Shown here one piece after another: positions 691 through 30,212 of a stretch of DNA of 64,000 nucleotides. The DNA is taken from positions 9,147 through 73,146 of the forward strand of contig CANLJX010000002.1 of the NCBI GenBank assembly GCA_947491545.1, written 5' to 3'. The stretch comes from Deltaproteobacteria bacterium. GTDB taxonomy: Bacteria; Bdellovibrionota_C; UBA2361; OMII01. How positions within the stretch are numbered: the stretch's first letter is position 1; every line of letters begins with the position of its first letter. A program made the position numbers and the translations under genes. The notes under the pieces were generated by a model that was not told the DNA's origin, ran no database searches, and saw only the letters and a list, made by a program, of their open reading frames with translations.

Positions 691-786
691 CCGCTTAGTG
701 TAGGTCACACAAGGCGCAAACGGTACCCCTTTTGGGGCTCCAGCGTCGCTTCCCTCGTAGGGCGGTGTCAGGCTAGACTCCCCGCC

Positions 787-1677
787 ATGACTGCACATTT
801 TCCCTTCAGTGGTGCGCTAGCGCCCGTCATGACACAGCTTGAGGCTGCGGTGCTCGACGCGGCTGGCTACCTCGTTTCAAGCCTTGAGTCGGGCGAAGCG
901 ATCAACGTCACCCTCAAGGCCGACCACACCCAGGTGCTAAACCTAGACCTTGAGAGCCAGCGCCGGATTCTGGCGAAGCTCGCCGGCACGTATCCGATAC
1001 TGGCTGAGGAAGATGAGAGCTCCCATTCGCTGATCGATGCTGGCGGAACGTACCTCTTGGTCGACCCGCTCGATGGCACGACCTCGTGCAAGCGCTTCCG
1101 CGGCATGCTCGGCGGACAGGTTGGCTACGGGCCACTCGTTGGTTTCGTGCAGAACAATCGCCTCTCGGCGGCAAGCTTCTACAACATCCCGCAGCGTCGG
1201 CTCTTCTCAGCGGTAGCGGGGCAGGGCACCTGGTGTGTCGAGACGAAGGGCGGGGCGCTCCCTGACGGGCTACCGCGAACGAGGCTTCAGCCTGCTTCGT
1301 GTTCCAAGCTCAATGAAGCCGGCGTGCTGTTCTTTATCGGGAAGCAGGGCGAGTCCGAGGTGGTCCAGCACCTGCGCAACGAGAATGCGCTTGAGAACCT
1401 GTACCGCTTCGGGGGCTTCGCAAACGACTGCTCAAGGCTGGCTCAGGGGCTAGAGCAGCTCTCGGTCCAGTTTACCGTAAAGCCTTGGGATCTCTCGGCT
1501 GCGCTGCTGGCTGAGGAGGCTGGGCTCGAGGTTATCCTGGACCCGCTCAAGAGAAAGATCCCCTTGCACTCCTGGCGCATCGAAAGAGAGAACCCTCTTA
1601 TCGCGGTTACCAAGCCTCTCAGAGACGAGCTCTTCACTGTGCTCAGCCGCTTTAAACGGCACGAGAGTGTTCGATGA
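787..1677 (+). CDS. Inositol monophosphatase family protein (SuhB/CysQ-like)
   Basis: ORF 673..1677. Start moved to ATG 787 (MTAHFPF). IMPase motifs AEEDE...LVDPLDGT and PWDLSAALLAEEAG. Confidence 0.75.
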   Translation: MTAHFPFSGALAPVMTQLEAAVLDAAGYLVSSLESGEAINVTLKADHTQVLNLDLESQRRILAKLAGTYPILAEEDESSHSLIDAGGTYLLVDPLDGTTSCKRFRGMLGGQVGYGPLVGFVQNNRLSAASFYNIPQRRLFSAVAGQGTWCVETKGGALPDGLPRTRLQPASCSKLNEAGVLFFIGKQGESEVVQHLRNENALENLYRFGGFANDCSRLAQGLEQLSVQFTVKPWDLSAALLAEEAGLEVILDPLKRKIPLHSWRIERENPLIAVTKPLRDELFTVLSRFKRHESVR

Positions 1678-2423
1678 CTAACGTTCGCTTCGACCCGCAC
1701 GCGCACCTGTACGAGAGCTACTCGCTCAAGAAGTGGGTCGACGCGGCGATCGGAAACCTTACCAAAGACCTAAAAGAGATCCTCCCGGTTGTCTTCATCG
1801 TTGACCGCGAGGGGCAAGACTCCTTTGCGCGGCTGCGCAAGGAGGTCCCGCTCTTTGGCGACTGGGAGGAGAACCCGGACGGGCGCTCGGGGTTGATTAC
1901 GGTCTTTGCGGGGAAGCTGCTGGTAGTTCGCGGTGTGCAGTACGTCGCTAAAGAGAAGATCGAGGTGCTCGGGCTCGGTGTTTCGCGCCGCGTTGCAGAC
2001 GGCGCTCCCGCGTCGGACCTCATCGAGCTGATCAGCGAGGAGGGCGGTGTGCCGTGCCTGCCGTGGTCGCCAGGAAAGTGGCTCGGCCGCCGCGGTCGGC
2101 TCGTGCGGCAGCTCCTTGAGTCGCATACCCCGAAGACGCTCACCGTTGGAGACATCTCGATGCGCACCTTCTTCGGGCCGCCATCGCCGCTGCTGCGCTT
2201 CGCGCGCGGGCAGGGATACTCGATGCTGTACGGCACCGACCCGCTGCCGCGCAAAGGAGACGAGCAGCTCGTCGGAAGCTTCGGCCGCGCAATCAAGAAG
2301 CTGCCCGAAGGCGACCTCGTTTCCGCGATCCTTGAGAGCCTGTACGGCGGAGCTGAAACGCTCAAGACCTGCGGGCGGCGCAACTCGGCGCTGCGCGCGG
2401 CGCTGCGGTATTTCTGGAAGTAG
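1674..2423 (+). CDS. Hypothetical protein, possibly PHP-like metal-dependent phosphoesterase
   Basis: ATGA stop/start overlap with the upstream IMPase-family gene. N-terminus FDPHAHLY resembles the HxH start of PHP/amidohydrolase folds; otherwise unrecognised. Confidence 0.5.
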   Translation: MTNVRFDPHAHLYESYSLKKWVDAAIGNLTKDLKEILPVVFIVDREGQDSFARLRKEVPLFGDWEENPDGRSGLITVFAGKLLVVRGVQYVAKEKIEVLGLGVSRRVADGAPASDLIELISEEGGVPCLPWSPGKWLGRRGRLVRQLLESHTPKTLTVGDISMRTFFGPPSPLLRFARGQGYSMLYGTDPLPRKGDEQLVGSFGRAIKKLPEGDLVSAILESLYGGAETLKTCGRRNSALRAALRYFWK

Positions 2424-2424
2424 C

Positions 2425-2535
2425 GCGGAGAAGGGGACGCTACGATATTCGTGCCGAGCCACCTGGATGAGGACTAGGAATCCAGTGCAAGTGCAGGAGA
2501 AGGAGGAAGAGTAGGAGGATTTGTTTCGCGGGGGA
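2425..2535 (-). repeat. Family A nested-palindrome element, copy A-1 (internally deleted half copy)
   Basis: GCTACGATATTCGTGCCGAGCCACCTGGATGAGGACTAGGAATCCAGTGCAAGTGCAGGAGAAGGAGGAAGAG aligns to one arm plus the centre of copy A-6. Confidence 0.7.
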
Positions 2536-2613
2536 GAAGAGTGAGGGTGTGAATACCAGTGTCGTAACGACGCTGACCACGAACGACCCTCAGACGTTCG
2601 CGGAGCGTTGAAC

Positions 2614-3123
2614 CTATTCCTCCGGGGGAAGGCCAAACATCACCTCCATGGACAGGAAAAAGGAGTCGAGATCGACCATTGGACCAAGATCTCCACCTTT
2701 CTCTGGCCCTTCTCTGTAGGTGGCCATGGCGAAGAACACGTTATTAGTTCCCGAGAGCGAGATGCGAGCGAATCCACACGCACCCTCCCCAGGGATCTCG
2801 ATAAACAGGTGCACAACGGGCATCTCGTAGCCTGGCACGATGACGTCATCAAGATCAGGCGCGGGCTTCCCGCCCATGAGTCCCGAAAATCCGCGGTGCT
2901 CCGCCAGACGCCGCGCCGGGGTACGCATTACTCCGGTGGCCACTCCGATCCGGTACTGCTCGAAAGAGCACACCGCTCGCTTTGGCGACTCCTTTAGGAC
3001 ATCCCCTCGGGCGAGCGTTTGGTGCTCGTTTCCGAGCCTCCAAACCCCCGTCTTTGGGTGCATAAAGAAAGCCAGGTCGAGCTCGGCTTCTTTCGTTAGG
3101 TAACACAGTTCAAATCGACGCAT
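2614..3123 (-). CDS. Hypothetical protein
   Basis: ORF 2614..3222. Start moved to ATG 3123 (MRRFELCYL) because AAGGAGG lies 7 nt upstream. No recognisable domain. Confidence 0.5.
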   Translation of the reverse strand: MRRFELCYLTKEAELDLAFFMHPKTGVWRLGNEHQTLARGDVLKESPKRAVCSFEQYRIGVATGVMRTPARRLAEHRGFSGLMGGKPAPDLDDVIVPGYEMPVVHLFIEIPGEGACGFARISLSGTNNVFFAMATYREGPEKGGDLGPMVDLDSFFLSMEVMFGLPPEE

Positions 3124-3317
3124 TGCAAAACCTCCTTGTGGAACCAACATGGGTCCCTCGTGCGCGCTGCAGCGTGCGTACGAGGGACCCACATGGCGTC
3201 CAGGAGGCAGGACAATGCCCAAAAAACCTTGCAGGTATTCACACCCTATAAAAGGGCACCTAGACAGTCTACGAGGTGGCGGGGATTAAGCAAATTTTGG
3301 CCGCTGGGAGAAGGTAG

Positions 3318-3332
3318 AGTAGCCCGGCTACT
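3318..3332. promoter_or_regulatory. 15-bp palindrome AGTAGCC-C-GGCTACT (candidate operator), copy 1
   Basis: Perfect 7+1+7 dyad inside each unit of the 164-bp tandem duplication. Confidence 0.3.
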
Positions 3333-3481
3333 GGCAAAAAAAGAGGAGGCTAGCCCCCCTACAGAGAAACAAACTGTAAAGTTTAGAGCATGAGCTGCCG
3401 TAAGCTATAAGCAATTCGCGGGGGTAAAGTTATGGGGCTAAAGAGAACTTTAAGCAAATTTTGGCCGCTGGGAGAAGGTAG

Positions 3482-3496
3482 AGTAGCCCGGCTACT
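3482..3496. promoter_or_regulatory. 15-bp palindrome AGTAGCC-C-GGCTACT (candidate operator), copy 2
   Basis: Same dyad, 164 bp downstream, ~100 nt upstream of the ATG at 3596. Confidence 0.3.
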
Positions 3497-3595
3497 GGCA
3501 AAAAAAGAGGAGGCTAGCCCCCCTACAGAGAGACAAACTGTAAAGTTTAGAGCATGAGCTGCCGTAAGCTGTAAGTAATTTGCGGGGGGAAAGTT

Positions 3596-4090
3596 ATGGG
3601 GCTAAAGAGAACTTTAATTGCGCTGCTTGCCTTGAGTGTAGCCTTTCAGGGTGCTCAGCCGTGGAGCGTCGCTACGCGGGAGGTGTCCGCCGAGAGCAAA
3701 GCGGCTGCTCCGAAGCGCAAAGCGCCGCCACGGAGGGTTTTCTCCACCCGGGCATCGGTTGACCCGCTGACACCCGAGGCGGTGGCATTTTCTGGAGCTC
3801 TGGCGAAGTCTATCCCAAGTCGGTTGACGAGGGAGTCTCTTCGTAAGTTTACGTTTAAGCGAGCGAAGTCCAACTCGTTCGTCTCGGCGGAGACTAAATT
3901 CTCGCTTAGTGCATTGGCATCAGACCGCCGATCTTGGGCACGTGGAGTTGCGACCGTTACAGCGGGCGATATGTTCGTGGCGTTCATTCCATCGGGAAAT
4001 GGATTGGTTGGCATCGTTGAGGCGGTCCAGCGACGTGTCGGCAATAAAAAGGTTGATCTTAAGAGAGAGGCGCAGCTTCGAGCGGCTTGA
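3596..4090 (+). CDS. Secreted hypothetical protein
   Basis: Sec-type signal peptide MGLKRTLIALLALSVAFQGA. G-rich RBS 7 nt upstream. Sits in a visibly lower-GC stretch. Confidence 0.5.
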   Translation: MGLKRTLIALLALSVAFQGAQPWSVATREVSAESKAAAPKRKAPPRRVFSTRASVDPLTPEAVAFSGALAKSIPSRLTRESLRKFTFKRAKSNSFVSAETKFSLSALASDRRSWARGVATVTAGDMFVAFIPSGNGLVGIVEAVQRRVGNKKVDLKREAQLRAA

Positions 4091-4258
4091 TTTAAGGTTC
4101 ATCTACTAGTCGATCGGTTCCAGGTAGTCTTGTGGGATTCGCTCGACCCCAAAGGTATTGAGCTAACGGTAGCTAAGGCGCCGACCCTGATCACGAGGCC
4201 TCTCTCACCACAAGAATTTGCGAGTGTCTTGATCCCCCCAAAGGGTTCGGCTTCGAGC

Positions 4259-4987
4259 ATGAGGGTTGCTGGTATGGTGCCTCCTGCGATGCTCGCCGTA
4301 ATGTCGGCTTCCACCGTTTGTTACGAAGAAAAGGAGCCCGCACTAAAGAGGTATCTAAGGCCGGAAAGGAAGTCTATCTGCATTTTTGGCCCGTCAGTTA
4401 ACGTGCCAGATGACAAGAAGGCGTGCCCGAAACCTCGCGATGACATAAAATGCGACTACAGCAAAACGAAAAGGGAATTGACTCTCAAAAGCGAAAACGT
4501 CTTTGCTAAATCGCAGGAGGACTGCAGGAAAGCTGCCGTAGAATTAGAGGAACAAAATTGTGCTGGGCAAACTTTTGACCCCTTAGTGCTGAACTGTCCG
4601 GTGGTTCCCACCTACTCTCCAGGGGGTGCACCTTCTTTTAAACCTTGGGTTTGCCCTATAGAACTGCAGGAGGTGGGAGTTTCCGGGGCCACGTGTATCC
4701 CAATTACCGGGCTTGACTGTAAAGACAGGAAGCCTGATCGCGTCACCGCTACCCTCGACTATGACAAAAAATTGGTGACCTGCCAGTGCTTTTGGGCGGC
4801 CAAGGACGATCCAACTTGCCCGGGGAATCCAGACAGGGCGTGTCACTATGACGAGAAATCTTTAGAGACGACTATGCCGATCATACGAGGTGAGACCAAC
4901 AAAACGCGGGTCGAGAAATGCCATGCGTCATGTGAGACGCAAGAAGCGGAGACCTCCCGGATCGAATGTGCCGGGGTAGAGGCGTAG
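4259..4987 (+). CDS. Cysteine-rich secreted/lipoprotein-like hypothetical protein
   Basis: ORF 4130..4987. A plausible start is MRVAGMVPPAMLAVMSASTVC (hydrophobic leader ending in Cys). About 18 Cys spread over the mature part (CPKPRDDIKC, NCAG, NCPV, CPIEL, CIPITGLDC, CQC, CPGNPDRAC, CHASC). Confidence 0.45.
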   Translation: MRVAGMVPPAMLAVMSASTVCYEEKEPALKRYLRPERKSICIFGPSVNVPDDKKACPKPRDDIKCDYSKTKRELTLKSENVFAKSQEDCRKAAVELEEQNCAGQTFDPLVLNCPVVPTYSPGGAPSFKPWVCPIELQEVGVSGATCIPITGLDCKDRKPDRVTATLDYDKKLVTCQCFWAAKDDPTCPGNPDRACHYDEKSLETTMPIIRGETNKTRVEKCHASCETQEAETSRIECAGVEA

Positions 4988-4994
4988 ATTGGTA

Positions 4995-5320
4995 GCGCAG
5001 AGAAGGTGTTCGTCCGGCTCTCAAAAAAAACATTCGGAGGCTCAAAGCAGAATCTAGCGAGGCATAGCATTCCTCATCTTCATCCTAATCCTGCTCTTAC
5101 GCCTGCACCTGCACCGGAATCCTCTTCAAGTTCAAGAAATTGCAGATGGTTGCCCACGCCATGCCGATCGAGATGCCCGGATGAGAATGAGAAATCCGAT
5201 GCAAGTCTAGGATTCGGAGACGGAGGAAGTTCAGGGGCAGCATAGCCACCTTTCCCCGCCCCAAAGCCAGGCTAGAGAAGCCTCTAACAGCCAGCTTTAG
5301 ACAGCATGTGCCGGCCCCTC
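4995..5320 (-). repeat. Family A element, copy A-2 (full length, one arm degenerate)
   Basis: CATTCCTCATCTTCATCCTAATCCTGCTC..CCTGCACCTGCACCGG arm. The flanks align to A-3 (TAGCGAGGCAT.., GCCAGGCTAGAGAAGCC, AGCCAGCTTTAGACAGCATGTGCCGGCCCCT). Confidence 0.7.
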
Positions 5321-5433
5321 CTGCCGAATCAGAACCGCCAATCGTTGCTTTCCACCCCTCGCTGAATGACACTCCCGGGCTGGGTTTAAAAGGTTTTTTC
5401 TCTAACGGGAGTTCTACTCCCAAGGAGTCGGAT

Positions 5434-6174
5434 ATGTTGTACGAGCACTTTTCTGAGTGCCCGAAAGTTGAGGGCTACAGCCGGACGGTTGCAGTCTTCG
5501 GTATTATTGGCAAAGAGAGCGATCTCTCGGCAAACGTTGGCCAGCCAGTCCTGCTGCTAAAGCAGCGTGACGGGATTGGCGGCTTTCCATGGTGTTGGGA
5601 TCTTCCGGGAGGCTCTGCCGAGCCGGGGGATGCCATCTCGGATGATGACCCCTTGATACGAGGGTCGCACGACAGGTCTGTTCGAAGGACGCTGCAGCGC
5701 GAGCTTCTCGAGGAAGTTAACATCCGTTCGGATTACCACGTCAGAATCGGCAACCCGCTCTACGAAGTGCGTGGGGTCGAGAAGAGGATCGTGGAGCATC
5801 ACCTCTTCCTTGTTGTGTCCCACGGCCCTCCGAAGGAGAGCGACGAGGCGATCAACTTGGCGTGGGTCAACCCGCAATCGGCCCTCGGGCTGAAAATTGC
5901 AAGGTTTGAGCCAGCGCAGCGCTCGATGGGGCCTGTGGCTATCCTGATGCACGATGGCTTCTCGGTGCTCAGCAAGCCGCTGTACGAGGGGCCCCTGACG
6001 GAAGAGATCAAGTCTGTCGCTGGTTCAGAGCTCTGCTCTAACCGATTCAGCTTGATCGATCGAGATTGCTACTTTGCAAGGCTGTCCCCGGATGGCTCTG
6101 TGAAGGTATACCGACGGCTCAATCCTTTTACTCCGAGCGGCCACTTTGTTGGCAGCCTAGAGCACTTCGCGTAA
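5434..6174 (+). CDS. NUDIX-family hydrolase (atypical insertion in Nudix box)
   Basis: ORF 5308..6174. Start moved to ATG 5434 (AAGGAG 6 nt upstream), because the 5' part of the ORF lies inside repeat A-2. Nudix-like GGSAEPGD...RRTLQRELLEEVNI. Confidence 0.6.
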   Translation: MLYEHFSECPKVEGYSRTVAVFGIIGKESDLSANVGQPVLLLKQRDGIGGFPWCWDLPGGSAEPGDAISDDDPLIRGSHDRSVRRTLQRELLEEVNIRSDYHVRIGNPLYEVRGVEKRIVEHHLFLVVSHGPPKESDEAINLAWVNPQSALGLKIARFEPAQRSMGPVAILMHDGFSVLSKPLYEGPLTEEIKSVAGSELCSNRFSLIDRDCYFARLSPDGSVKVYRRLNPFTPSGHFVGSLEHFA

Positions 6175-6247
6175 GCCTCTGAGTTTTATCAACCCGTCCC
6201 GCACCGAGAGGGAACACAATATCTCGGCAACTTTTTCGTTCTCCTGA

Positions 6248-6449
6248 AACTCGTGTCAGTCATGACTTTCCGAGTGTTCTCAACCGCAATACTTGCGAGC
6301 CTCTCTTTGGAATAATTCGATTCTGGCGATGATCGGTGCATAACTCGACGGAATCGGTGCGCCCCATGCGAAAACAGGAAAGGGAGCTGCGCCGTGCAAA
6401 CAACGCGACGCCGAGAAAGGAAGAAAGTCATGACTGACAGGAGTTTGCC
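6248..6449 (+). mobile_element. Family E MITE-like element, copy E-1
   Basis: Terminal IRs AAACTCGTGTCAGTCATGACTTTC / GAAAGTCATGACTGACAGGAGTTT (23 of 24). ~200 bp with no coding capacity for a transposase. Confidence 0.75.
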
Positions 6450-6510
6450 AGCGGGTGCGGCTGCCGTCCAAATTTCAGGCGCAAGCGACCGGCGTCTATA
6501 CATTGCAATG

Positions 6511-7644
6511 TCAATATGTTAGCGCCTCATCCGCCGCCCCTTCGGCCTTCTTGCCGTCTGGCGGCACGCGCACGAATGCGGTTCGGCGCGCCATGCGTTC
6601 GATAACGGTCACAAACACAAACTGGGGGCGCTCCCGCTCAACCAGCCCAACCAAGTTGCGGGGACTGGCAAGAGCCTTATCCCAGTGAAGAATCGCGAGA
6701 TCCGCAAACGTACGCTCCATGAACGGCTTTAGCGAATCACCGAAAGAATCGGTGAGCCACAGTACCTTTGCGGCGTTGAGCGCTCCAGGGGTGTGGCGTC
6801 GCAACAGTCTCGCTGGCTCGCCTTGCTCCAAGATGTCCGGCAGCTCTTCTGCCCGTCCGACCGTAGAGAGCTCATCGGCGGGGGCTGGCTTCAACACCGG
6901 CACCTCCTCCCGATCCCATGCTTGGAGCCGAAGGAACAGCGACATGTCTCCGCCCCGCCGTTCTGTAGTGCCATCCACCGTAAAAAATTCGGCAGGAAGC
7001 CAGGCAACCTCAGGCGCATGCTCCCTGACAGATTCCGCAAATGCTCGGTACCCAAGCCATGCCCCAAGCTCGTTCCAGTGCGAGTCGTGCATGTAGTACA
7101 GCCGCTCGGTCCGTGAGCGCGCAGCCGAGAGGAGCGCCGGCGCGAGAAAGACGTGGACTCCTTTCTCTGGCAGGGACTTGAGCCGCTCTATCGGCGCATC
7201 TGGCGAAGTCTTCGCCCAGTTCGGCGCATACTCCCCATACACAGACTGCTTGTCTGGGACCACCATGATTCGAAAAACCCGCACGCCTTTCTCGCGCAAC
7301 CAAAGATCCCATGCTATTCCGGCGCTGATAATCCTGCTGTTTCGCTCTTCGTCAGCCGGTGTGGCGGAACGCCTGTGGGAAGAGATCGAATCTTGGTGCG
7401 TGTCCCCAAGAAAGTCCCACCCCCCGTAGCCAATCACGACGTCTCCGGGGCTCACGCTCACGCCATACGCCGCAAGCGGCCGAGACACCCAGCTAAAGAA
7501 CCGGTCGAAGTTGAACATCTCTCGGCTAATCCAGGGCGGCCGCTGCTCCTTGGATGCTGCAAAGCGCTCCGCCACAGGTATGGCGCACAAGCACGCAGCG
7601 ACGCAGCTGAGAAAAATGTGAACTTTGCTTTTTGCTCTCATCAC
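6511..7644 (-). CDS. AlgJ/AlgX-like SGNH O-acetyltransferase partner of MBOAT
   Basis: N-terminal membrane anchor. DSHW motif (YYMHDSHWNELG) typical of AlgJ/AlgX/DltD-type proteins. Starts directly after the MBOAT stop (TAG-GTG-ATG). Confidence 0.65.
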   Translation of the reverse strand: MMRAKSKVHIFLSCVAACLCAIPVAERFAASKEQRPPWISREMFNFDRFFSWVSRPLAAYGVSVSPGDVVIGYGGWDFLGDTHQDSISSHRRSATPADEERNSRIISAGIAWDLWLREKGVRVFRIMVVPDKQSVYGEYAPNWAKTSPDAPIERLKSLPEKGVHVFLAPALLSAARSRTERLYYMHDSHWNELGAWLGYRAFAESVREHAPEVAWLPAEFFTVDGTTERRGGDMSLFLRLQAWDREEVPVLKPAPADELSTVGRAEELPDILEQGEPARLLRRHTPGALNAAKVLWLTDSFGDSLKPFMERTFADLAILHWDKALASPRNLVGLVERERPQFVFVTVIERMARRTAFVRVPPDGKKAEGAADEALTY

Positions 7645-9120
7645 CTAGAAATTAAAGTACAGAAACACCCGGCTCATCGACGCAACCGCAAAGAGAATGC
7701 CGATCCCCAGGAGGGGGATTGCGCCGACGACTCGCCGAACTGTCATCTCGCTCCGCGCCATCTCTATCGTGTTCGGCGCGGTGAGCACCATCGCCGATGC
7801 AGCTATCACTCCAAGAATTGGCAGGTTGATCGCCACGCCTGCTGGCAAGCTCGAAAGCAGCCCGTCCATGGCAAAACCTCCCCACGCAAGCTGCGCTGTA
7901 GGGATTGCCTGTGTCGGCAGTGACAGGGCGCTCTCAAGATCGAGCATCCCGGAAAACACTTTCTGCGCATCCCCCCACGACTTGGCACGAAAGAGCACCC
8001 ACCCCGCATTCACGAAGAGGAAGGTAGCTCCCCACGCCCAGGGCTTCGGCAACCGACACCCAACGCCAGACCAAACACGGTGCGTCACCATACCAACGCC
8101 GTGCAACGCTCCCCACGCCACAAAGAGCCAACTCGCTCCGTGCCACAGCCCACCGAGAGTAAATGTGACCAACACGTTGGCGGCGGCTTGCGCCACGCCG
8201 ACACGGTTTCCGCCCAGCGGGATGTAGACGTATTCTCTCAGAAAGCGGCTTAGTGTCATGTGCCATCGCCGCCAGAAGTCCTGAATGTCGAGCGCCTTGT
8301 AGGGCGAATTGAAGTTCATCGGCAGCCAGATGTTAAACAGCAACGCGCAGCCAATCGCCATGTCGCTGTAGCCGCTAAAGTCGAAGTAAAGCTGAAACGT
8401 GTAGGCAAGGCTCGTTCCCCACGCACTGAAGAAATCAAGCGACTGCGCTTGGTCGAATCCCCAGTTAGCCCAAAGCGCAAGCGTGTCAGCGATCACTACT
8501 TTCTTGAACAATCCAAGGCTAAAGGCGAACAGCCCTCGCATCACGTATGAGTACCGAACGGTCCAGCGCCACCGGGAGGTGAGCTGCCCCATAACATCAT
8601 CGTGATGAACTATCGGTCCTGCGATGAGGTGGGGGAAGAATGTCACGAAGAGGGCGTAGTTCAGGAGCCGGTACTCGTGCGTCTTCCCACGGTAGCTGTC
8701 GACCAGGTAGTCAATCTGCTGGAACGTGAAGAAGCTAATTCCCAACGGGAGCGCTACTCGCAGGAGCGCGAGGTCGGTGCCAAGCCGGGAGTTAACGTTG
8801 CTAATAAAAAAGTCCGCGTACTTAAAGTAGCCAAGAAGGAGGAGATTTGCCGTCACGCCAACCGCAAGCCGCGCCCGGCGAGATGCGCCCCAACGGCTTC
8901 CAGCCTCCGGCCCTAACTCCCTTCCGATTCCAAAGTTAAAGAGGATAGACCCAGCGATAAGCGGAAGGTAGCGCCAGTCCCAGTAGCCGTAGAAGAAAAG
9001 ATTCGCTGCAACGAGCCACACCTTCGCCGAGACAACACGGCGGAAGCGATTGAGCAGGAAGTACCCTGAAAAAACCGCCGGCAAGAAAAGAAGGATGAAC
9101 TGCCAGGATGAAAAAAGCAT
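7645..9120 (-). CDS. algI: MBOAT family O-acyltransferase (AlgI/DltB-like)
   Basis: 491-aa polytopic membrane protein. MLFSSWQFILLFLP N-terminus, WRRWHMTLSRFLREYVYIPLGGNR and GLWHGASW motifs characteristic of AlgI/DltB. Confidence 0.88.
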   Translation of the reverse strand: MLFSSWQFILLFLPAVFSGYFLLNRFRRVVSAKVWLVAANLFFYGYWDWRYLPLIAGSILFNFGIGRELGPEAGSRWGASRRARLAVGVTANLLLLGYFKYADFFISNVNSRLGTDLALLRVALPLGISFFTFQQIDYLVDSYRGKTHEYRLLNYALFVTFFPHLIAGPIVHHDDVMGQLTSRWRWTVRYSYVMRGLFAFSLGLFKKVVIADTLALWANWGFDQAQSLDFFSAWGTSLAYTFQLYFDFSGYSDMAIGCALLFNIWLPMNFNSPYKALDIQDFWRRWHMTLSRFLREYVYIPLGGNRVGVAQAAANVLVTFTLGGLWHGASWLFVAWGALHGVGMVTHRVWSGVGCRLPKPWAWGATFLFVNAGWVLFRAKSWGDAQKVFSGMLDLESALSLPTQAIPTAQLAWGGFAMDGLLSSLPAGVAINLPILGVIAASAMVLTAPNTIEMARSEMTVRRVVGAIPLLGIGILFAVASMSRVFLYFNF

Positions 9121-9364
9121 GCTCTCTTACCAGCGGACCGCCGGGAACAGCCGTTAGTGCATCGTCTCATGTGTTCAGTGGCTCGCAACCACCAGCCGCC
9201 GCACTGAAGCCATTCGTTTCCGGCGCATATTGCCCCTAAAACACTATAGGAACCGCTAGCGTCCGTCGCAACCAAGATTCAGCGGCGGGTGTCGAAATTT
9301 TGTGGACGGAGAACTAGCAGCCCATTCCCGGCTGATCGCCGCAAGAGCTTGTGCTCGCTTGGGG

Positions 9365-9567
9365 AACTCGTGTCAGTCATGACTTTCCGAGTTTTTTCAA
9401 CCGCAATACTTGCGAGCGTCTCTTTGGAATAATTCGATTCTGGCGACGAGCGGTGCATAACTCGACAGAATCGGTGCGCCCCATGCGAAAACAGGAAAGG
9501 GAGCTGCGCCGTGCAAACAACGCGACGCCGAGAAAGGAAGAAAGTCATGACTGACAGGAGCTTAGCC
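9365..9567 (+). mobile_element. Family E MITE-like element, copy E-2
   Basis: Same orientation as E-1, with 6 mismatches counted over ~200 bp. Confidence 0.75.
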
Positions 9568-9891
9568 AATGCCAAGTCACGAAGACGCTCTCCCTCGGAA
9601 TAACCCTTAAGACGCAGTCTTTGGCCAGACATATGAGTAGAAGGAATTCGTGCGTATCCGACCGTCCCTGAAACTCTGGGAGGCTCGGAGGCGCAGAAAG
9701 TGAGGAGAGGTTTCTACCGCTTTGGTGTTCACTCTATAGGAACTCAAGCGATAGCTCACCCTCGAAACAGTGACTACAGACATCCGGCGCTCCCTAAGCT
9801 CACAAGGCATCGCAGAGGCGGTCCCTTGTGAGTTTAGGTGAGATGGCACGCGCTGTCTCTAAGCTCGGTTTCGATTAGAAGGGAGTCTACT

Positions 9892-10002
9892 GTGTACGCA
9901 GCACTTAAGTTGACTGGAGAGTTGTTGGCTTTTATTGCTCAGGCAATCGCTATCTTATTCTCCGTAGGATTCATGGCACTCATTGCCTGGATCGTGACAT
10001 AG
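9892..10002 (+). CDS. Candidate 36-aa hydrophobic membrane peptide
   Basis: Not in ORF track (too short). GTG start 7 nt after AAGGGAG. Translation: VYAALKLTGELLAFIAQAIAILFSVGFMALIAWIVT*, one predicted TM helix. Lies in a low-GC gene-free stretch. Confidence 0.3.
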   Translation: MYAALKLTGELLAFIAQAIAILFSVGFMALIAWIVT

Positions 10003-10072
10003 AGCGGCAGGGCACAGATTTTGATGGTTACAACCCTCACTTTCTTGCCCTCCACCTCTCTAGGAGAGCGAT

Positions 10073-10392
10073 GCGAAAAAGGGGGCGGACATGCTCTGTA
10101 GAAAAGCTGTGCAGTCTCAATTCCAGTCGTAGCGGGGCATCTCATTCCTCGTCCTGATCTTAATCCTCCTCCTGCACCTGCACCGGCTCCTGCTCATAAT
10201 CAAGAAATGTCCGGGAATTGCCCAGTATATGCCCGCAATAAGGGGACGGACGAGAACGAGGAATCTGGTGCAGGTGCAGGAGAATGAGAAAGAGGAAGAC
10301 TGGGACAAGGAGGAGGAGGAGAACGGCCGGCTAGTAACTCCTTCGCGAGCCAGCGCTTTTTCTACAGAGCATCTCCGACCCCTTTTTCGTGC
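10073..10392 (-). repeat. Family A element, copy A-3 (most complete, ~320 bp)
   Basis: Outer IR: GCGAAAAAGGGGGCGGACATGCTCTGTAGAAAAGC / GCTTTTTCTACAGAGCATCTCCGACCCCTTTTTCG. Inner IR: CTCCTGCACCTGCACCGG / CTGGTGCAGGTGCAGGAG. Pyrimidine and purine tracts mirror each other. Confidence 0.9.
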
Positions 10393-10409
10393 AGTGAAAT
10401 GCTGAAGTC

Positions 10410-11441
10410 TTACCCCCAGCACGGCTCCTGCTGCGTCGAGCAGTGCAGCGTGCCGCCTCCGAGAATCCAGTCGGTGCAGTTTATCCCGACTACCTTGCGG
10501 CCTGGCATCAGCTCTGCCAGGAGGCCTAGCACGTGCCTATCACGTTCGTCGTTCCAGGTCGGGACGAGGCACAGCCCGTTGGCGAAGTAAAAATTAGCGT
10601 AGCCGGCCGGCCAGCGCACACCGTCGCAGAAGCGCGGGGTAGGGAACGGGATCTCGACCACTGTGAGCTTCTCGCCCTGTGGGGTGCGGAAGCTCTGCAG
10701 CACATCGACGTTCTGTTGCAGCCGCTCGTACTGCTCGCTGTCGCTCTTCTCAGCGCTCGCAACGACCACGGTGCGTGAGTCAACAAAGCGCGCCACGTTG
10801 TCGATGTGGCCGTGGGTGTCGTCGCCCGACACGCCGTTGGGAAGCCAGATCGTGCTGGAGCACCCGAACTGCGAGCGGAAGATCTCCTCGTAGTCGGCCT
10901 TCGAGAAGCCGGCGTTACGCTGTTGGTCTTCCGAGAGCAGGCACTCCTCGGTGACGAGTATCAGGCCGTCGCCGCTTACGTCGAGCATGCCGCCCTCGAG
11001 CACGGGCTGCTTGCCGCCCTTTAAGCCCTTCTGGAGGGGGACCTTGGTCGTGGCCGAGAAGAACTCTGGCACTGTGCGGTCTAGCTCGACCTCTGGCAGG
11101 GCGCCCCAGCCGGTAAAGAGGAACGAGAGCCATGTTGGGCTGTCACCAACAATCCCGATCGGCCCAGAGTCGCGCAGCCAGGCGCGGTTGTACTGCGCAC
11201 GGTGGAAGACGATGTCGCCGCGAATCTCCTGGCGTGAGAGCCGATCGCGCGCGTCGTGCTCGGTCTCCTCGTCGAGGCACAGCAGCTCAATGCGCTCGTT
11301 CTGGGAGACGTGTCGGATAAACTCACAGTACGCCCAGCGCACGGCGTCGACCTTGCCCGGGTAGTCTGACTCAAGGTAGGGCCACGCGATCCACGTTGCG
11401 CGGTGCTCTTCCCACTCTGCTGGCATTCGATTCATCTGCAT
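10410..11441 (-). CDS. aguA: Agmatine deiminase
   Basis: MPAEWEEH N-terminus, DDTHGHIDN, and C-terminal GGGTLHCSTQQ active-site Cys motif of agmatine deiminase / PAD_porph family. Confidence 0.85.
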   Translation of the reverse strand: MQMNRMPAEWEEHRATWIAWPYLESDYPGKVDAVRWAYCEFIRHVSQNERIELLCLDEETEHDARDRLSRQEIRGDIVFHRAQYNRAWLRDSGPIGIVGDSPTWLSFLFTGWGALPEVELDRTVPEFFSATTKVPLQKGLKGGKQPVLEGGMLDVSGDGLILVTEECLLSEDQQRNAGFSKADYEEIFRSQFGCSSTIWLPNGVSGDDTHGHIDNVARFVDSRTVVVASAEKSDSEQYERLQQNVDVLQSFRTPQGEKLTVVEIPFPTPRFCDGVRWPAGYANFYFANGLCLVPTWNDERDRHVLGLLAELMPGRKVVGINCTDWILGGGTLHCSTQQEPCWG

Positions 11442-18125: not shown

Positions 18126-18250
18126 GGGTATTTATCTACAAAGAGAGCGGCGAGATCAGAGAGGGGTAAGGGAAGTAGTATTCCCCGTAGTTGTTCTTGC
18201 TGTTCTGTTTGTTTTTATTCCGCGTTCTCGCGCCTCTTCTTGGCAGCTGC
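18126..18250. repeat. Family B palindromic element, copy B-1
   Basis: ACAAAGAGAGCGGCGAGA...GAGGGG...TTCCCCG...GTTCTTGCTGTTCTGTTTGT, then ATTCCGCGTTCTCGCGCCTCTTCTTGGCAGCTGC. Confidence 0.8.
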
Positions 18251-18297: not shown

Positions 18298-18420
18298 GGG
18301 ATTTATTTACAAAGAGGGCGGCGAGGGTACAGAGGGGGAGATATAGGGCTATTCCCCTCGTCGTTCTCGCCGCTCTCTTTGTTTTAATTCCCCGTTCTCG
18401 CGCCTGTTCTTGGAAGCTGC
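18298..18420. repeat. Family B palindromic element, copy B-2 (172 bp after B-1)
   Basis: ACAAAGAGGGCGGCGAGGGTACAGAGGGGGAG..CTATTCCCCTCGTCGTTCTCGCCGCTCTCTTTGT; tail ATTCCCCGTTCTCGCGCCTGTTCTTGGAAGCTGC. Confidence 0.85.
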
Positions 18421-18742: not shown

Positions 18743-18870
18743 AGTAGGGGACATTATCCCCATCACCAAGTAACCACCTGATTTCCATGCTTTTTATCGC
18801 TTTACCATAAACTTACGGCCCCGTGAACGTGCGCGTGCACGTAAACGGCGAAGATTTCTTCCAGTCGCCT

Positions 18871-18921
18871 CGCAGCCGCAGCCGCACCCGGAGCTGGTGC
18901 CGTTCCTGGTGCCGTGCCCGG
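18871..18921. repeat. Family C CCGG-rich GC repeat
   Basis: GCAGCCGCAGCCGCACCCGGAGCTGGTGCCGTTCCTGGTGCCGTGCCCGGG. Confidence 0.6.
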
Positions 18922-18997
18922 GCAAGGCGAGGACTGGCTCGGCGCCATTTAGAACATGAATCCGCGCCTCCGCGTTATTAAACCAGAAGCTGCCGGT

Positions 18998-19260
18998 ATC
19001 GACTGAAGCTGGGAGGTTACGCTCACGGTCGATTGTGAAGAGCGAGCTCTCTCGGTGTTTAAAGCCTTTTAGTTAAGTAACGCGGAGGCGCGGAACTCGC
19101 GGAGGTCACGGAAAGTGATTCACCGAGGCGCCAGCAGCGACATATTCTCTGATAAGAAAGCACCATGGCGGCAGACTCCGCGTCTTCCGCGCCTCCGCGT
19201 TACCTAACCAAAAAGCTCCGAAGCTCATTGGTGAACGGGTGATTTGCAGAGCCCTCCTCT
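18998..19260 (+). repeat. Family D ~260-bp repeat, copy D-1
   Basis: ATCGACTGAAGCTG...GTTAAGTAACGCGGAGGCGCGGAACTCGCGGAGGTCACGGAA...TCTCTGATAAGAAAGC...TCCGCGCCTCCGCGTTACCTAACC...GATTTGCAGAGCCC. The internal 24-bp IR is GTTAAGTAACGCGGAGGCGCGGA / TCCGCGCCTCCGCGTTACCTAAC. Confidence 0.85.
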
Positions 19261-19275
19261 CGCAGCCGCAGCCGC

Positions 19276-21755: not shown

Positions 21756-22000
21756 GCGGAAAAAAGGGGACGGACATGCTTTGTATAAAAGGTGCTATGT
21801 CCCGAAGGAGTTGCTAGCCGGCCGTGCTCCTCCTCCTCCTCCTTGTCCTAGTCTTTCTCCTTCTCCTGCACTTGCACTCAATTCCTCGTCATCATCCGGG
21901 TATCGCGACACCAGCATCGTCGGCGTTCCAGCGAGGCTTCCTGGGTATGAGCAGGAGTCGGTGCAGGTGCAGGAGGAAGAGGAGGATTAGGATGAAGATG
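21756..22000 (+). repeat. Family A element, copy A-4 (tandem with A-5)
   Basis: GCGGAAAAAAGGGGACGGACATGCTTTGTATAAAAGG outer end, then CTCCTGCACTTGCACTCAATTCCTCGTCATCATCC ... GAGCAGGAGTCGGTGCAGGTGCAGGAGGAAGAGGAGGA. Confidence 0.85.
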
Positions 22001-22241
22001 GGAGAAAGGGGACAGACACTTTGTCCAGCGGGGTGCTCTTCTTCTAATGCGTTTCCTGGTCTTCGTCCTTCTCCTTCTCCTGCACTTGCAATGAATTCCC
22101 CGTCCTCATCCAGGTATCGCGATACCAAAATCGTCGGCGAACCAGTGACTTGCTGATTGGGAGCAGGAGTCAGTGCAGGTGCAGGAGGAAGAGGAAGATT
22201 AGGATAAAGATGGGAAAAGTGTCCGTCCCCTTTTTCCTGCG
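22001..22241 (+). repeat. Family A element, copy A-5
   Basis: GGAGAAAGGGGACAGACACTTTGTCC..., CTCCTGCACTTGCAATGAATTCCCCGTCCTCATCC ... GTCAGTGCAGGTGCAGGAGGAAGAGGAAGA ... GGGAAAAGTGTCCGTCCCCTTTTTCCTGCG. Confidence 0.85.
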
Positions 22242-23862: not shown

Positions 23863-23920
23863 AAACCCTCCAAGCGGATTACGGGCTAAAAATCCCGTGA
23901 ACGAGGGGAATGCGCAAGGC

Positions 23921-24211
23921 GCGAAAAAGGGACGGATACCTTTTCGCGCCTTCCCTACTGACGAGTTCATAGCCGACCGCTCTTTTCCTCAACCTTCTCC
24001 TCGTCTTCCTCCTTCTCATTCTCCGGCACTTGCACTGGATTCCTCGTCCTCATCCGGGTCTTCCGACGCGAATATCGTAGCCAATCCGCGGAATTGTTCT
24101 GATTATGAGCAGGAACCGGTGCAGGTGCAGGAGGAAGAGGAGGATTGGGATAAAGATGAGGAATGTTATCTCGGCAGATTTTTTACGGACCGGGAGGGGC
24201 ACCTTTTTCGC
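23921..24211 (+). repeat. Family A element, copy A-6
   Basis: GCGAAAAAGGGACGGATACCTTTTCGC ... GGCACTTGCACTGGATTCCTCGTCCTCATCC ... GATTATGAGCAGGAACCGGTGCAGGTGCAGGAGGAAGAGGAGGA ... GGGGCACCTTTTTCGC. Confidence 0.88.
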
Positions 24212-26916: not shown

Positions 26917-26946
26917 GGCACCGGGAACGGGAACGGCTCCGGGAAC
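26917..26946. repeat. Family C CCGG-rich GC repeat
   Basis: GGCACCGGGAACGGGAACGGCTCCGGGAAC, directly abutting repeat A-7. Confidence 0.6.
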
Positions 26947-27225
26947 GCAAAAAGGTAAGGGAACCTTTTTTGCTGCTCCCTTCTTTATCTTTATCCTAAT
27001 CCTGCTCTTCCTCCTGCACTTTCACTGACTCCTGCTCGTAATCGAGCAATGTCTCCGCCTTGCCTAGGAGATTGGCATCGAGGTAGCCGGATTAAGAATG
27101 AGGAATTTGGTGCAGGTGCAGGAGAAGGATAAAGAGAAAGAGTAGGGGGGAGCCCACCGGGTGGACCTTGAGCTATGATGGGACAAAACGTGTCCTCTAA
27201 CGAGCAGAGCCGTTCGCTTCTCGCC
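26947..27225 (-). repeat. Family A element, copy A-7
   Basis: GCAAAAAGGTAAGGGAACCTTTTTTGC, CCTAATCCTGCTCTTCCTCCTGCACTTTCACTGACTCCTGCTCGTAATC ... GAATGAGGAATTTGGTGCAGGTGCAGGAGAAGG. The right boundary is approximate. Confidence 0.75.
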
Positions 27226-29263: not shown

Positions 29264-29459
29264 GCGCAAAAAAGGGGACGGACACCTTTTTGCGAGTCGT
29301 CTCCTAATCTTTCTCCTCCTCCTGCACTTGCACCAGATTCCTGGTCTTAATCCTGCTACCTCGGCGCTAAAGGGTCCCGGAAATTTTGGGATTATGAGCA
29401 GGAGGCAGTGCAGGTGCAGGAGAAAGAGGAGGATTAGGACGAAGAAGAGGAGTGCCGTG
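29264..29459 (+). repeat. Family A element, copy A-8 (tandem with A-9, period 196 bp)
   Basis: GCGCAAAAAAGGGGACGGACACCTTTTTGCG ... CTCCTGCACTTGCACCAGATTCC ... GATTATGAGCAGGAGGCAGTGCAGGTGCAGGAGAAAGAGGAGGA. Confidence 0.85.
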
Positions 29460-29677
29460 CCCCGCTTCGATGAGAACGCTCGCTAGCATAAGTTTTCTCT
29501 TCATCCGTCTCCTCCTCCTGCACTTGCACCCGATTCCTGGTCTTAATCCTGCTAGCTCAGCGCTAAAGGGCCCCGGAAATCCTCGGGATTATGAGCAGGA
29601 GGCAGTGCAGGTGCAGGAGAAAGAGGAGGATAAGGACGAAGAAGAGGAGTGCCGTGCCCCGCTTCGATGAGAACGCT
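29460..29677 (+). repeat. Family A element, copy A-9 (truncated at the junction with tRNA-derived sequence)
   Basis: CTCCTGCACTTGCACCCGATTCC ... GATTATGAGCAGGAGGCAGTGCAGGTGCAGGAGAAAGAGGAGGA ... GAGTGCCGTGCCCCGCTTCGATGAGAACGCT, then an abrupt switch to CCCTGGTTCAAGTCC. Confidence 0.8.
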
Positions 29678-29884
29678 CCCTGGTTCAAGTCCAGAAGCGG
29701 CATTATGGGGGATTACTTGGAGTGGCCCCACCTGGACTTGAACCCGGATCTTGTGTTCGCTCCAAGCTCCGGACGCTGTGGCGTCCTTCGCGTCGCTCAC
29801 TCGCAGAACGCTCGCTAGCTCGCGTTCTGAGCGGAAGCTCCCTGGTTCAAGTCCAGAAGCGGCATTATGGGGGATTACTTGGAG

Positions 29885-29906
<22 letters not shown>
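29675..29906 (-). repeat. 70-bp direct repeat (x2, 162-bp spacing) containing the tRNA(CAT) 3' end
   Basis: GCTCCCTGGTTCAAGTCCAGAAGCGGCATTATGGGGGATTACTTGGAGTGGCCCCACCTGGACTTGAACC occurs at 29675-29744 and 29837-29906. Confidence 0.9.

Positions 29907-29910
<4 letters not shown>
29840..29910. repeat. 17-bp perfect inverted repeat of the tRNA T arm
   Basis: CCCTGGTTCAAGTCCAG (29840-29856) and CTGGACTTGAACCAGGG (29894-29910, part of the intact tRNA), with a 37-bp spacer. Confidence 0.85.

Positions 29911-30212
<302 letters not shown>

Follow-up and report, generated by a model that had tools for sequence, protein, structure and literature searches.

The palindromic intergenic repeat of ~280-320 bp that occurs at nine loci in the analysed stretch of 64,000 nucleotides (hereafter the window) probably represents an old, non-coding MITE family, inserted at gene ends of an uncultured freshwater bacterium. 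Terminal inverted repeats combined with 9-bp direct repeats, as read in the DNA of the copies, are the signature of a MITE moved by a DDE transposase, and these two features place the family among ordinary MITEs. The family itself is new; the kind of element is well known and brings no new biology.

Structure and distribution of the family

A profile search (nhmmer) of the window recovered all nine loci claimed by the initial annotation at, or within a few bases of, the coordinates given there (Table 1). Its description of an abundant intergenic family of nested palindromes with tandem GTGCAG hexamers was borne out: GTGCAGGTGCAGGAG with no more than two mismatches was matched 21 times versus 0.26 expected, and all nine copies, located between 2.4 and 29.7 kb, sit between called genes. 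The outer repeats, the pyrimidine and purine tracts and the CTGCAC/GTGCAG arms read as they had been quoted. The complete unit comprises about 280 bp and is bounded by terminal inverted repeats TGCTCTGTAGAAAAC...GTTTTCTACAGAGCA, which are conserved in 11 complete copies from four sources aligned over ~280 bp, with 80% of the cells of the end helix paired in this alignment. The centre, previously described as variable and ~50-60 bp long, is instead conserved across genomes, asymmetric and 75-85 nt long, and it orients each copy. Profile scores were 110-190 bits in the forward versus 35-79 bits in the reverse orientation (nhmmer); the copies starting at 21777, 22025, 23960, 29279 and 29468 read forward on the + strand and those starting at 2440, 5019, 10092 and 26979 on the - strand.

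Folding, proposed earlier as a check, gave one long hairpin for 10073-10392 on either strand (z = -8.6 and -9.7). In the long-form alignment 81% of the cells were paired versus 39-47% in slid controls, and both halves were equally conserved (0.82 and 0.83). About half of all copies are short forms without ends, and the number of hexamers differs between the copies L118 and L127, with three GTGCAG units present in L123.

The outer flank at 10372-10392 begins 18 nt from the stop of an agmatine-deiminase-family gene (10410-11441, - strand), and copy 2440-2519 immediately adjoins a CGTCCCCTTCTCC flank beside the stop of the gene at 1674-2423. At copy 5019-5248 the right flank GGACGAACACCTTCTCT is still visible, and AAAAAAGGGGACGGACA at 21760-21776 precedes copy 21777-22002. 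Copies are also found at both edges of an 8-kb island of the window (2424-10409).

Table 1. Repeat copies, their parts and adjacent small hairpins in the window. Coordinates are window positions.
Feature	Coordinates	Strand	Details
Complete copy, model positions 1-279	10092..10371	- (forward orientation)	nhmmer long-form profile 250 bits, full model; single long hairpin fold
Terminal inverted repeat TGCTCTGTAGAAAAG, right end of the element (forward orientation)	10092..10106	+	Read, pattern match, aligned with ten other complete copies
Terminal inverted repeat TGCTCTGTAGAAAAA, left end of the element (forward orientation)	10357..10371	-	Read, pattern match
Outer flank GCGAAAAAGGGGGCGGACA, A-tract and G+C stem half, beyond the transposon ends	10073..10091	+	Inverted relative to 10372-10392
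Outer flank TCTCCGACCCCTTTTTCGTGC, partner of 10073-10091	10372..10392	+	
Arm of degenerate hexamers with CTGCACCTGCAC at its end; pyrimidine-rich on the + strand	10143..10183	+	Family D1, register shifts of 12
Opposite arm, purine-rich on the + strand; GTGCAGGTGCAG, then GAG/GAA-type hexamers	10268..10323	+	
Internally deleted copy, model 64-143 (left arm and left half of centre)	2440..2519	-	
Degenerate long-form copy, model 43-276	5019..5248	-	Eroded end repeats and flanks reach ~4995-5320
Copy with intact left end TGCTTTGTATAAAAG (21777-21791); first unit of tandem pair	21777..22002	+	
Second unit of tandem pair	22025..22220	+	Followed by TGTCCGTCCCCTTTTT at 22220-22235
Short-form copy, model 29-233, between two - strand genes	23960..24170	+	
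Small hairpin GCGCG-AAAAAGG-GACGGATA-CCTTTT-CGCGC, truncated left edge of copy 23960-24170	23919..23949		
Copy with left end present (model 1-228) and right end truncated, downstream of ychF-like gene	26979..27206	-	
Small hairpin GC-AAAAAGG-TAAGGGAA-CCTTTTTT-GC, truncated edge of copy 26979-27206	26947..26973		
Short-form copy, first unit of 197-bp tandem duplication	29279..29461	+	
Second unit of 197-bp tandem duplication	29468..29658	+	
Small hairpin GCGC-AAAAAAGG-GGACGGACA-CCTTTTT-GCG, abutting copy 29279	29264..29294		3 nt past the stop of a trypsin-like gene

The search beyond the window that had been recommended located the family in four JGI metagenomes and in two other MAGs, both of which bear the label "uncultured Bdellovibrionales". 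These MAGs and freshwater metagenomes supplied at least 20 more copies, and the family now counts at least 30 loci in three or more genomes. A first genome-wide pattern scan had returned ~110 matches, of which 9 were real, matches to coding-sequence repeats of the QE.VQVQ type being predominant. One copy (L092) is 80% identical to window positions 10084-10371 over 296 nt and lies between unrelated flanking genes, hence the unit spread as a whole. Copies are ~72% identical both within and between genomes, and such a value within one genome gives no sign of recent transposition. Judging from these identities, the copies are old, and tandem duplication and hexamer slippage are the only recent changes. 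Near-identical strains (97-99.8% identity) vary in tandem copy number alone and have a single copy at each tandem-pair site (at the 22025 site in L114 and L144, at the 29279 site in L120); the two tandem pairs of the window are evidently recent local duplications. Relatives with an agmatine-deiminase-family gene (Pfam PAD_porph) of 73-82% amino-acid identity have no element downstream of this gene, and the downstream neighbourhood is also rearranged in them; among the relatives compared, no clean filled-versus-empty pair was obtained at one orthologous site.

Ends, target sites and a putative mobilising enzyme

Both end motifs were located in ten complete copies, and the flush 9-mers were compared with shifted registers. 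Flush 9-bp direct repeats were present in five of the ten (9/9 in L118, 8/9 in L021, L092 and L129, 7/9 in L113); since 0.1% of the shifted registers reach 7/9, five of ten corresponds to P ~3e-13. A recognisable duplication is missing in the other five, and two of these, window copy 10092-10371 and L115, have inverted flanks matching at 7/9 positions, which simple insertion does not predict; the direct-repeat match of the window copy is 4/9. Three insertions (L113, L118 and L021) are exact loop insertions, with the 9-bp duplication corresponding to the N9 loop of an A-tract-GG-N9-CC-T-tract hairpin. Hairpins of the form A5GG-N9-CCT5 number 7 in 156 kb versus 0.44 expected and were observed there solely beside element copies, and short forms without ends often abut such a small hairpin.

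The statement of the initial annotation that no transposase is encoded in the window agrees with our data, as neither the gene calls of ~9-64 kb nor ten additional ORFs, six of which lie at 71-4987, yielded a transposase domain. No autonomous element sharing the ends was found in the window or in viral contigs; the end repeat itself was not found in the viral contigs, where the pattern scan gave two chance matches that are not copies. The ends were compared with IS end sequences taken from PMC10569121 and PMC6382973. Of 18 positions, 11-12 agree with the IS903B inverted repeat GGCTTTGTTGAATAAATC (binomial P ~1e-3 for 11 or more), a modest likeness that was noticed after the fact, and just 5-8 agree with IS5-group and IS1-type ends. 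The pattern GCTnTGTnG-A-rich is common to the ends of IS903B (GGCTTTGTTGAATAAATC), ISAba12 (GGCTTTGTTGCACAAA) and the family (TGCTCTGTAGAAAACGTG), although the family ends begin with TG and not with GG as the IS903-group ends do. Duplications of 9 bp are also produced by IS903B, ISAba12 and MITEAba12 (PMC10569121, PMC6382973). In both end sequence and duplication length the family appears to resemble the IS903-group IS5 elements.

We propose that a DDE-type transposase acting in trans mobilised the element, and that the 9-bp staggered target cuts of this enzyme left the 9-bp direct repeats. This transposase would most likely be an IS5-family enzyme of the IS903 group, encoded elsewhere in the genome or since lost. 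The master copy was probably already a long quasi-palindrome, in which end repeats, subterminal segments and two arms of ~45 nt each, built of degenerate hexamers that terminate in (GTGCAG)2, surrounded an asymmetric ~83-nt centre, and from such a palindromic master every copy would fold as a long hairpin. Spacers at gene ends would have served as insertion targets, in several cases exactly in the 9-nt loop of A-tract-GG-N9-CC-T-tract hairpins. The old amplification would then have been followed by roughly neutral decay, loss of ends, local tandem duplication and slippage in hexamer number. At gene 3' ends, the giant hairpin with its A5/U5 clamp could conceivably act on transcripts.

Alternative readings of the palindrome

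Irrespective of its origin, the core could also be retained by the host as a hairpin of ~130 bp that is transcribed from the upstream gene and has an A5...U5 clamp, acting as a bidirectional terminator, a 3'-exonuclease block or an RNase III substrate, which we consider unlikely. The element is co-directional with the upstream gene, ~10-80 nt past its stop, in 12 of 17 loci, whereas five of the 17 are antisense to flanking transcription. Cores remain where the transposon ends are gone, the outer flanks contain A- and T-tracts, and two MAG species keep orthologous copies at 88-92% identity; however, the orthologous copy is less conserved than the adjacent genes (88% versus 94.8%) and thus evolves faster than they do. 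When the arms alone were folded as RNA, the forward strand gave the more stable structure in 18 of 27 copies (mean -3 kcal/mol, Wilcoxon p = 0.019), with 111 G:U pairs versus 77, but copy-specific transitions are symmetric (29 versus 31), implying that the strand bias was inherited from the consensus and did not arise through independent events. CACTTGCAC, noted earlier in one arm of five copies, is the family consensus and does not reflect five separate events, and the suggested hint of single-strand pairing from G:T versus C:A mismatches is gone among independent copy-specific substitutions. Covariation does not exceed that of shuffles (0.140 versus 0.138; in 63 of 500 shuffles, pairs with changes in both partners were at least as numerous as observed), and the 81% pairing with shuffle-level covariation and equal halves is consistent with a palindrome that the copies inherited from their master and that has since decayed neutrally.

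Canonical terminator-like sites are not enriched (18 versus 15.8 expected). In the small hairpins the A-tract pairs with the T-tract, with no trailing U-run, and at copies 10073-10392 and 21756-22241 the outer flanks have the form A5-G+C stem...stem-T5, with the stem halves 280-450 nt apart. The Rfam comparison, another check proposed at the outset, yielded no matching family: at the gathering threshold tRNAs and RNase P alone passed and no copies, and at E up to 10 the copies matched generic microRNA hairpin models alone, far below threshold. Two candidate signals were rejected. RNA structure under selection had been considered on account of early co-varying arms and a better-conserved purine arm, both of which vanished in the long-form alignment; strand asymmetry as an independent signal, with its forward-favouring fold energies and a cruder arm-versus-arm count of 121 versus 96, did not withstand the transition counts given above. 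It is rather improbable, in our judgement, that the transposon homed in a structure-guided manner to the 9-nt loops of A-tract-GG/CC-T-tract gene-end hairpins and that the host then retained its ~130-bp hairpin, clamped by A5/U5, to terminate transcription in both directions or to stabilise RNA. If true, this would explain why cores outlive the transposon ends, why orthologous copies persist across species, how some flanks were converted from direct to inverted repeats, and how two copies can flank, and may even transport, a gene island like the one at 2424-10409.

We regard it as very improbable that the copies form a small-protein gene family, for example of a type I toxin-like hydrophobic or acidic-tailed peptide, in which the palindrome would arise as Leu/Ile/Phe codons reverse-complement Glu/Asp/Lys codons. 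The arms do show three- and six-base periodicity, one forward frame reads ...SG(Y/H)xDTNI(V/L)GNP...LDYEQE(S/P)VQVQEEEED before a mostly conserved stop (TAG/TAA), with some synonymous changes (TAT/TAC, GGC/GGA/GGG, ATC/ATT/ATA), and a hydrophobic LLFLLHLH tract lies on the opposite strand. Yet a conserved start codon exists in no frame, with ATG absent in 6 of 19 copies, several copies contain stops or frameshifts, and centre lengths of 83, 84, 89, 95, 74, 80 and 58 nt set the arms out of frame. Moreover, codon-position entropy (0.54, 0.72, 0.76) has no wobble pattern, and the longest ORF has neither a homologue among 5.8 billion proteins nor a Pfam match. A frame ending in DYEQEPVQVQEEEED and a stop was tried as a relic of a transposase C-terminus and rejected, as no protein in the protein collection has such a tail. 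The intergenic location, the palindromic sequence and the mosaic of short and long forms, together with a GTAG tetranucleotide within the end repeat (CTGTAGAAAAC) and the small hairpins beside many copies, recall REP/BIME- or REPIN-type elements, whose single-stranded hairpins are spread by RAYT, an IS200/IS605-like tyrosine transposase. Such an origin is highly doubtful for a unit of ~280 bp, not 20-40 nt or a ~100-nt doublet, with flush 9-bp direct repeats at half of the complete copies; Y1/HUH transposition is not known to leave a target duplication, and among the gene calls of the window and those available for related loci no RAYT/Y1 domain was present. Finally, many short-read contigs end within copies, as is expected of dispersed repeats, and this could raise the suspicion of an assembly artefact or chimeric repeat collapse, which is scarcely credible given that these loci recur with their flanks unchanged in ENA, Logan, JGI and GenBank MAG records, which are independent assemblies of different samples.

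Relation to known repeats and significance

As a putative MITE family, the repeat is comparable to MITEAba12/ISAba12 and IS903B in being non-coding, multi-copy and mostly intergenic, with 9-bp target-site duplications. Just a fraction of its copies keep a recognisable duplication, as in MITEAba12, where 36 of 90 copies do so (PMC6382973). The family nevertheless differs from MITEAba12 in size and composition (~280 bp and G+C-rich versus 113 bp and 78% A+T), in its interior, a long quasi-palindrome with hexamer-array arms, and in age, its copies being old (~72% identity) whereas those of MITEAba12 are nearly identical; several of its insertions fall within short-palindrome loops, versus A+T-rich DNA for IS903-group MITEs.

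The imperfect palindromes Correia/NEMIS of Neisseria and ERIC/IRU of enterobacteria, 100-150 bp in length, are found at gene ends and are co-transcribed with their neighbours, and their long RNA hairpins can alter mRNA processing and stability. They have no sequence similarity to the family; Correia duplicates TA instead of 9 bp, and Correia and ERIC lack the hexamer-repeat arms and the conserved asymmetric ~83-nt centre. REP, BIME and REPIN elements are likewise abundant extragenic palindromes after genes that form mosaics of short and long forms, but REPs measure 20-40 nt, leave no target duplication and have a RAYT gene, in contrast to the ~280-bp unit with flush 9-bp duplications. The earlier conclusion that the repeat is not REP/BIME, ERIC, Correia or RUP is upheld. 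Its broader claim of an unrecognised family stands as far as Rfam is concerned, although by its inverted-repeat ends and 9-bp duplications the element is of an ordinary MITE kind; the literature on Bdellovibrio repeats contained nothing relevant that we could find. Precise insertion within the loop of a short palindrome is shared with IS1397 and ISKpn1, autonomous elements with 3-4 bp duplications that insert in the loops of an abundant host REP family, but unlike those REP targets the loop hairpins observed here were seen solely beside copies of the element and may be either host sites or remnants. Eukaryotic foldback (FB) transposons also possess long inverted arms made of short tandem repeats that differ in number from copy to copy; they belong to another domain of life and use another transposase, and the likeness is architectural only.

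Current understanding of bacterial repeats is unchallenged by the family. Its recognition can aid annotation, where copies give rise to spurious ORF calls of 100-170 aa, assembly, where copies break contigs, and strain typing, since tandem copy and hexamer numbers differ between otherwise near-identical strains. An undescribed freshwater lineage, represented by MAGs labelled Bdellovibrionales, gains a repeat family with consensus, ends, duplication length and orientation. The apparent preference for loops of short palindromes and the bracketed 8-kb island offer modest hints as to how targets are chosen and how MITEs may assist the movement of genes.

Copies and anatomy of Family A

A repeat search of the window recovered Family A, and re-reading confirmed the sequence that the initial annotation had quoted for its most complete copy (10073-10392). 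With up to two mismatches the 15-mer GTGCAGGTGCAGGAG has 21 matches in the window, against 0.26 expected, all within 2.4-29.7 kb. Copy coordinates were set by a profile made from the Family A copies themselves; at the same loci, the forward strand, as defined by the asymmetric centre, scores 110-190 bits and the reverse strand 35-79 bits. By forward strand, five window copies lie on + and four on -. Every window copy is flanked on either side by housekeeping genes, according to gene calls obtained for these contigs.

Family A copies and G+C-rich motif sites in the window
Feature	Position	Strand	Basis
Family A copy, truncated	2440-2519	-	profile search
Family A copy	5019-5248	-	profile search
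Family A copy	10092-10371	-	profile search
Family A copy	21777-22002	+	profile search
Family A copy	22025-22220	+	profile search
Family A copy	23960-24170	+	profile search
Family A copy	26979-27206	-	profile search
Family A copy	29279-29461	+	profile search
Family A copy	29468-29658	+	profile search
G+C-rich motif	18870-18923		
G+C-rich motif	26930-26947		
G+C-rich motif	31543-31560		
G+C-rich motif	38539-38580		
G+C-rich motif	58131-58172		

Alignment of eleven complete copies over ~280 bp revealed five layers. Outermost is the end repeat TGCTCTGTAGAAAAC(G/A)TG, followed inwards by ~30 nt (GCTCTGTCCCGAAGGAGTTAnTAGCCGGCC at left, its counterpart at right being complementary in part), by ~45 nt of degenerate hexamers (left CTCCTT/ATCCTA..., right GAGGAA/GATTAG...), by (CTGCAC)2 (left) and (GTGCAG)2 (right), and by the asymmetric centre. 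Read forward, all copies have a pyrimidine-rich arm with CTGCACTTGCAC at its end, the centre tgGATTCCTCGTCCTCATCCGGGTAT..CGACACGAATATCGT.GGCAAT...GAAATTTCTTGATTATGAGCAGGAGnCr, and then GTGCAGGTGCAG and a purine-rich arm. The ~83-nt centre, earlier described as variable, is neither variable nor symmetric in these alignments, and the arm mismatch singled out in five copies, CACTTGCAC opposite GTGCAGGTG, is the plain family consensus. Hexamer number varies at one locus between samples (~4 vs ~12 CTCCTG units; L118 and L127, outside the window), and L123 has three GTGCAG units. On both strands 10073-10392 folds into a single long hairpin (dG ~-153 kcal/mol; z = -8.6 and -9.7).

The window also holds a second dispersed repeat of ~270 bp, unrelated to Family A (18998-19270 and 41286-41550; 79-85% identity, three blocks in the same order), and a pyrimidine-rich local repeat of 67 nt, 84% identical (18184-18250 and 18354-18420, 170 bp apart). 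Recurrent short G+C-rich motifs (GGAACGGCTCCGGGAACG / CCGGnnCCGGnnCCG type) are also present, one 18-mer having 4 matches against 0.11 expected; the L092 and L031 copies have them in their flanks too, and several adjoin Family A copies. Either an additional small repeat family or a favoured spacer sequence could account for them.

Probable transposon ends, target sites and candidate transposase

The base directly outside GCTCTG is T in nine of ten tested copies; at the opposite end the partner base is A in seven of the ten, so the ends read TGCTCTG... and ...CAGAGCA. For the ten copies with both end motifs located, we compared the 9 nt flush outside each end. Half of them carry direct repeats: L118 (GGCGCGCTC on both sides, 9/9), L129 (left GCGTGAAGA, right GCATGAAGA, 8/9), L092 (GCTCCACCG, GCTCCGCCG, 8/9), L021 (TGTCCGCCC, TGTCGGCCC, 8/9) and L113 (TATCCGCCC, TGTCCGTCC, 7/9). 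In a shifted-register null on the same flanks 0.1% of comparisons reach at least 7/9, which gives P ~3e-13 for five of ten copies. Given the terminal inverted repeats, the flush duplication of fixed length, the short unit, its numerous dispersed copies and its lack of coding capacity, we consider Family A likely to be a MITE.

The duplicated 9-mer coincides exactly, in L113, L118 and L021, with the spacer of a short A-tract-GG-N9-CC-T-tract palindrome, as in GAAAAGG-GGCGCGCTC-element-GGCGCGCTC-CCTTTAT. Uninterrupted hairpins of this form number 7 in 156 kb against 0.44 expected, for instance at window 29268 (AAAAAAGG-GGACGGACA-CCTTTTT). All seven adjoin a Family A copy, mostly at the truncation point of short-form copies (cores without transposon ends), and they may be sites of the host, products of excision or what is left of older copies. 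The flanks of window copy 10092-10371 and of L115 are inverted (7/9) and not direct, which explains the outer inverted layer A5-GGGGnCGGAnA...TnTCCGnCCCC-T5 that had been reported for 10073-10392 and is indeed present. Inverted flanks are outside the prediction of simple insertion; a putative palindrome-templated conversion of one flank could have produced them.

The Family A end has 11-12 of 18 positions in common with the IS903B inverted repeat GGCTTTGTTGAATAAATC, compared with only 5-8 of 18 for IS5-group and IS1-type ends (sequences from PMC10569121). IS903B, ISAba12 and the 113-bp MITEAba12 make 9-bp duplications (PMC10569121, PMC6382973), the same length as in Family A. Movement by an IS903-group transposase, to which these end sequences point, is possible though on balance doubtful, a lead and not a demonstration. 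No autonomous partner element was found. The gene calls covering ~9-64 kb of the window show no transposase domain, and neither does a Pfam scan of ten ORFs, of which six lie at 71-4987 and four overlap copies.

Probable inheritance and decay of the palindrome

Selection on the hairpin was assessed by a pairing and covariation test of the eleven complete copies against the full palindromic structure. Paired cells amount to 81%, against 39-47% with partners slid by 1-3 columns, with no covariation above chance in these copies (score 0.140 vs 0.138 for shuffles); 63 of 500 shuffles contained at least as many pairs with changes in both partners. Conservation of the left and right halves is 0.82 and 0.83. 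The initial annotation took G:T mismatches as a weak hint of single-strand pairing, which did not hold up: G:U-keeping copy-specific transitions number 29 forward and 31 reverse. Of 19 whole cores, 15 fold with lower energy on the forward strand, as do 18 of 27 arms folded alone (p = 0.019), a bias that is not independent evidence because it is carried by consensus-fixed positions. Copies are co-directional with the upstream gene at 12 loci and not at 5. An orthologous copy in two MAG species is 88% identical, compared with 94.8% for the adjacent genes. The lack of excess covariation, equal halves, symmetric transitions and faster ortholog change thus fit a palindromic master sequence that was inherited and afterwards decayed near-neutrally. 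A transcript-level role of the hairpin is possible, and nothing in the results requires one.

One forward frame offers a tempting ...LDYEQE(S/P)VQVQEEEED followed by a stop, and the arms have a three-base periodicity, since codons for Glu/Asp/Lys, read on the opposite strand, become codons for Leu/Ile/Phe. A coding function was rejected: the start is not conserved in any frame, 6 of 19 copies lack ATG, the centre measures 83, 84, 89, 95, 74, 80 and 58 nt, and entropy per codon position is 0.54, 0.72 and 0.76. A homologue search with the longest ORF of the ...VQVQEEEED type found none, and Pfam gave no match to Family A ORFs.

The tandem pair at 21756-22241 is one copy in L114 (97.5% identical contig) and L144 (99.8%), and that at 29264-29677 is one copy in L120; recent change has therefore come from slippage and local duplication rather than from transposition. 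Numerous short-read contigs terminate inside Family A copies. Partial tRNA duplications adjoin tRNA-Met (29884-29958, - strand) within 29675-30221, namely a 127-bp unit x2.3 beginning with the tRNA 5' part and a repeated 73-nt segment with T-arm-like GGTTCAAGTCC, 162 bp apart; such units are fewer in the related strain L120.

An 8-kb island and the spread of the family

The inositol-monophosphatase/249-aa operon (window 673-2423) and the convergent agmatine-deiminase-family gene (Pfam PAD_porph; window 10410-11441) are direct neighbours in the relatives L159 and L160, which defines window 2424-10409 as an 8-kb island. It contains a 202-aa ORF, a tandem repeat of 164 bp, a gene with a called length of 365 aa, and NUDIX, ALGX and MBOAT genes, and is bracketed by copies 2440-2519 and 10092-10371 with a third inside (5019-5248), all three in one orientation. 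Relatives with a 73-82% identical agmatine-deiminase-family gene keep the operon upstream of it and have no Family A copy after it. Directly after its stop, L155 (4042-4075) carries TACAGAGCA-AGCCCCTCTTCG, which matches the final 9 nt of the Family A right end together with a GCCCCCTTTTTCG-like flank; judged by this short match, it may be a solo right end left by copy deletion at the orthologous site, or chance. The junction downstream of the gene appears to be a rearrangement hot spot.

Several further features lie here. A 199-bp direct repeat (6248-6446 and 9365-9563, 96% identical), unrelated to Family A, flanks the ALGX-MBOAT pair. The 164-bp unit (3286-3617, two tandem copies, 97% identical) contains CCCCCCTACAGAGAAAC and TTTAGAGCATG, with a faint likeness to the Family A end repeat, and assembly k141_1381044 of the same organism ends a few hundred bases away, near 3.9 kb. 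At the junction, L159 (4116-4557 and 6605-7041) and L160 (5985-7001) have a ParE/RelB toxin-antitoxin pair with a phage-integrase-family gene nearby. Window ORF 71-592, without a match in Pfam, has 66-72% amino-acid identity to sequence overlapping those integrase calls on the opposite strand.

Most matches in a genome-collection scan were coding sequence; true copies were found in the MAGs CAYPUA (isolate SRP193358_co1_85) and CAZZJR (isolate SRP124364_co1_356), both titled "uncultured Bdellovibrionales bacterium", with 11 copies in 56 kb. A more specific metagenome scan gave 17 contigs with ~19 copies; these contigs belong to four JGI metagenome projects and bear the prefixes Ga0007787, Ga0209358, Ga0129333 and Ga0209033. 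The viral contigs scanned held no copy, and an Rfam search returned no matching family. Pairwise identity is ~72% within a genome and ~72-74% between genomes, and flanking genes are unrelated between genomes except in one same-species contig pair. Over 296 nt the L092 copy shares 80% identity with window 10084-10371 and, with the unrelated flanking genes, indicates that the unit spread whole, long ago. Family A is a real, previously undescribed repeat family of an already known kind: a probable MITE with 15-nt ends and 9-bp duplications, old and in decay, whose internal quasi-palindrome is unusually long.
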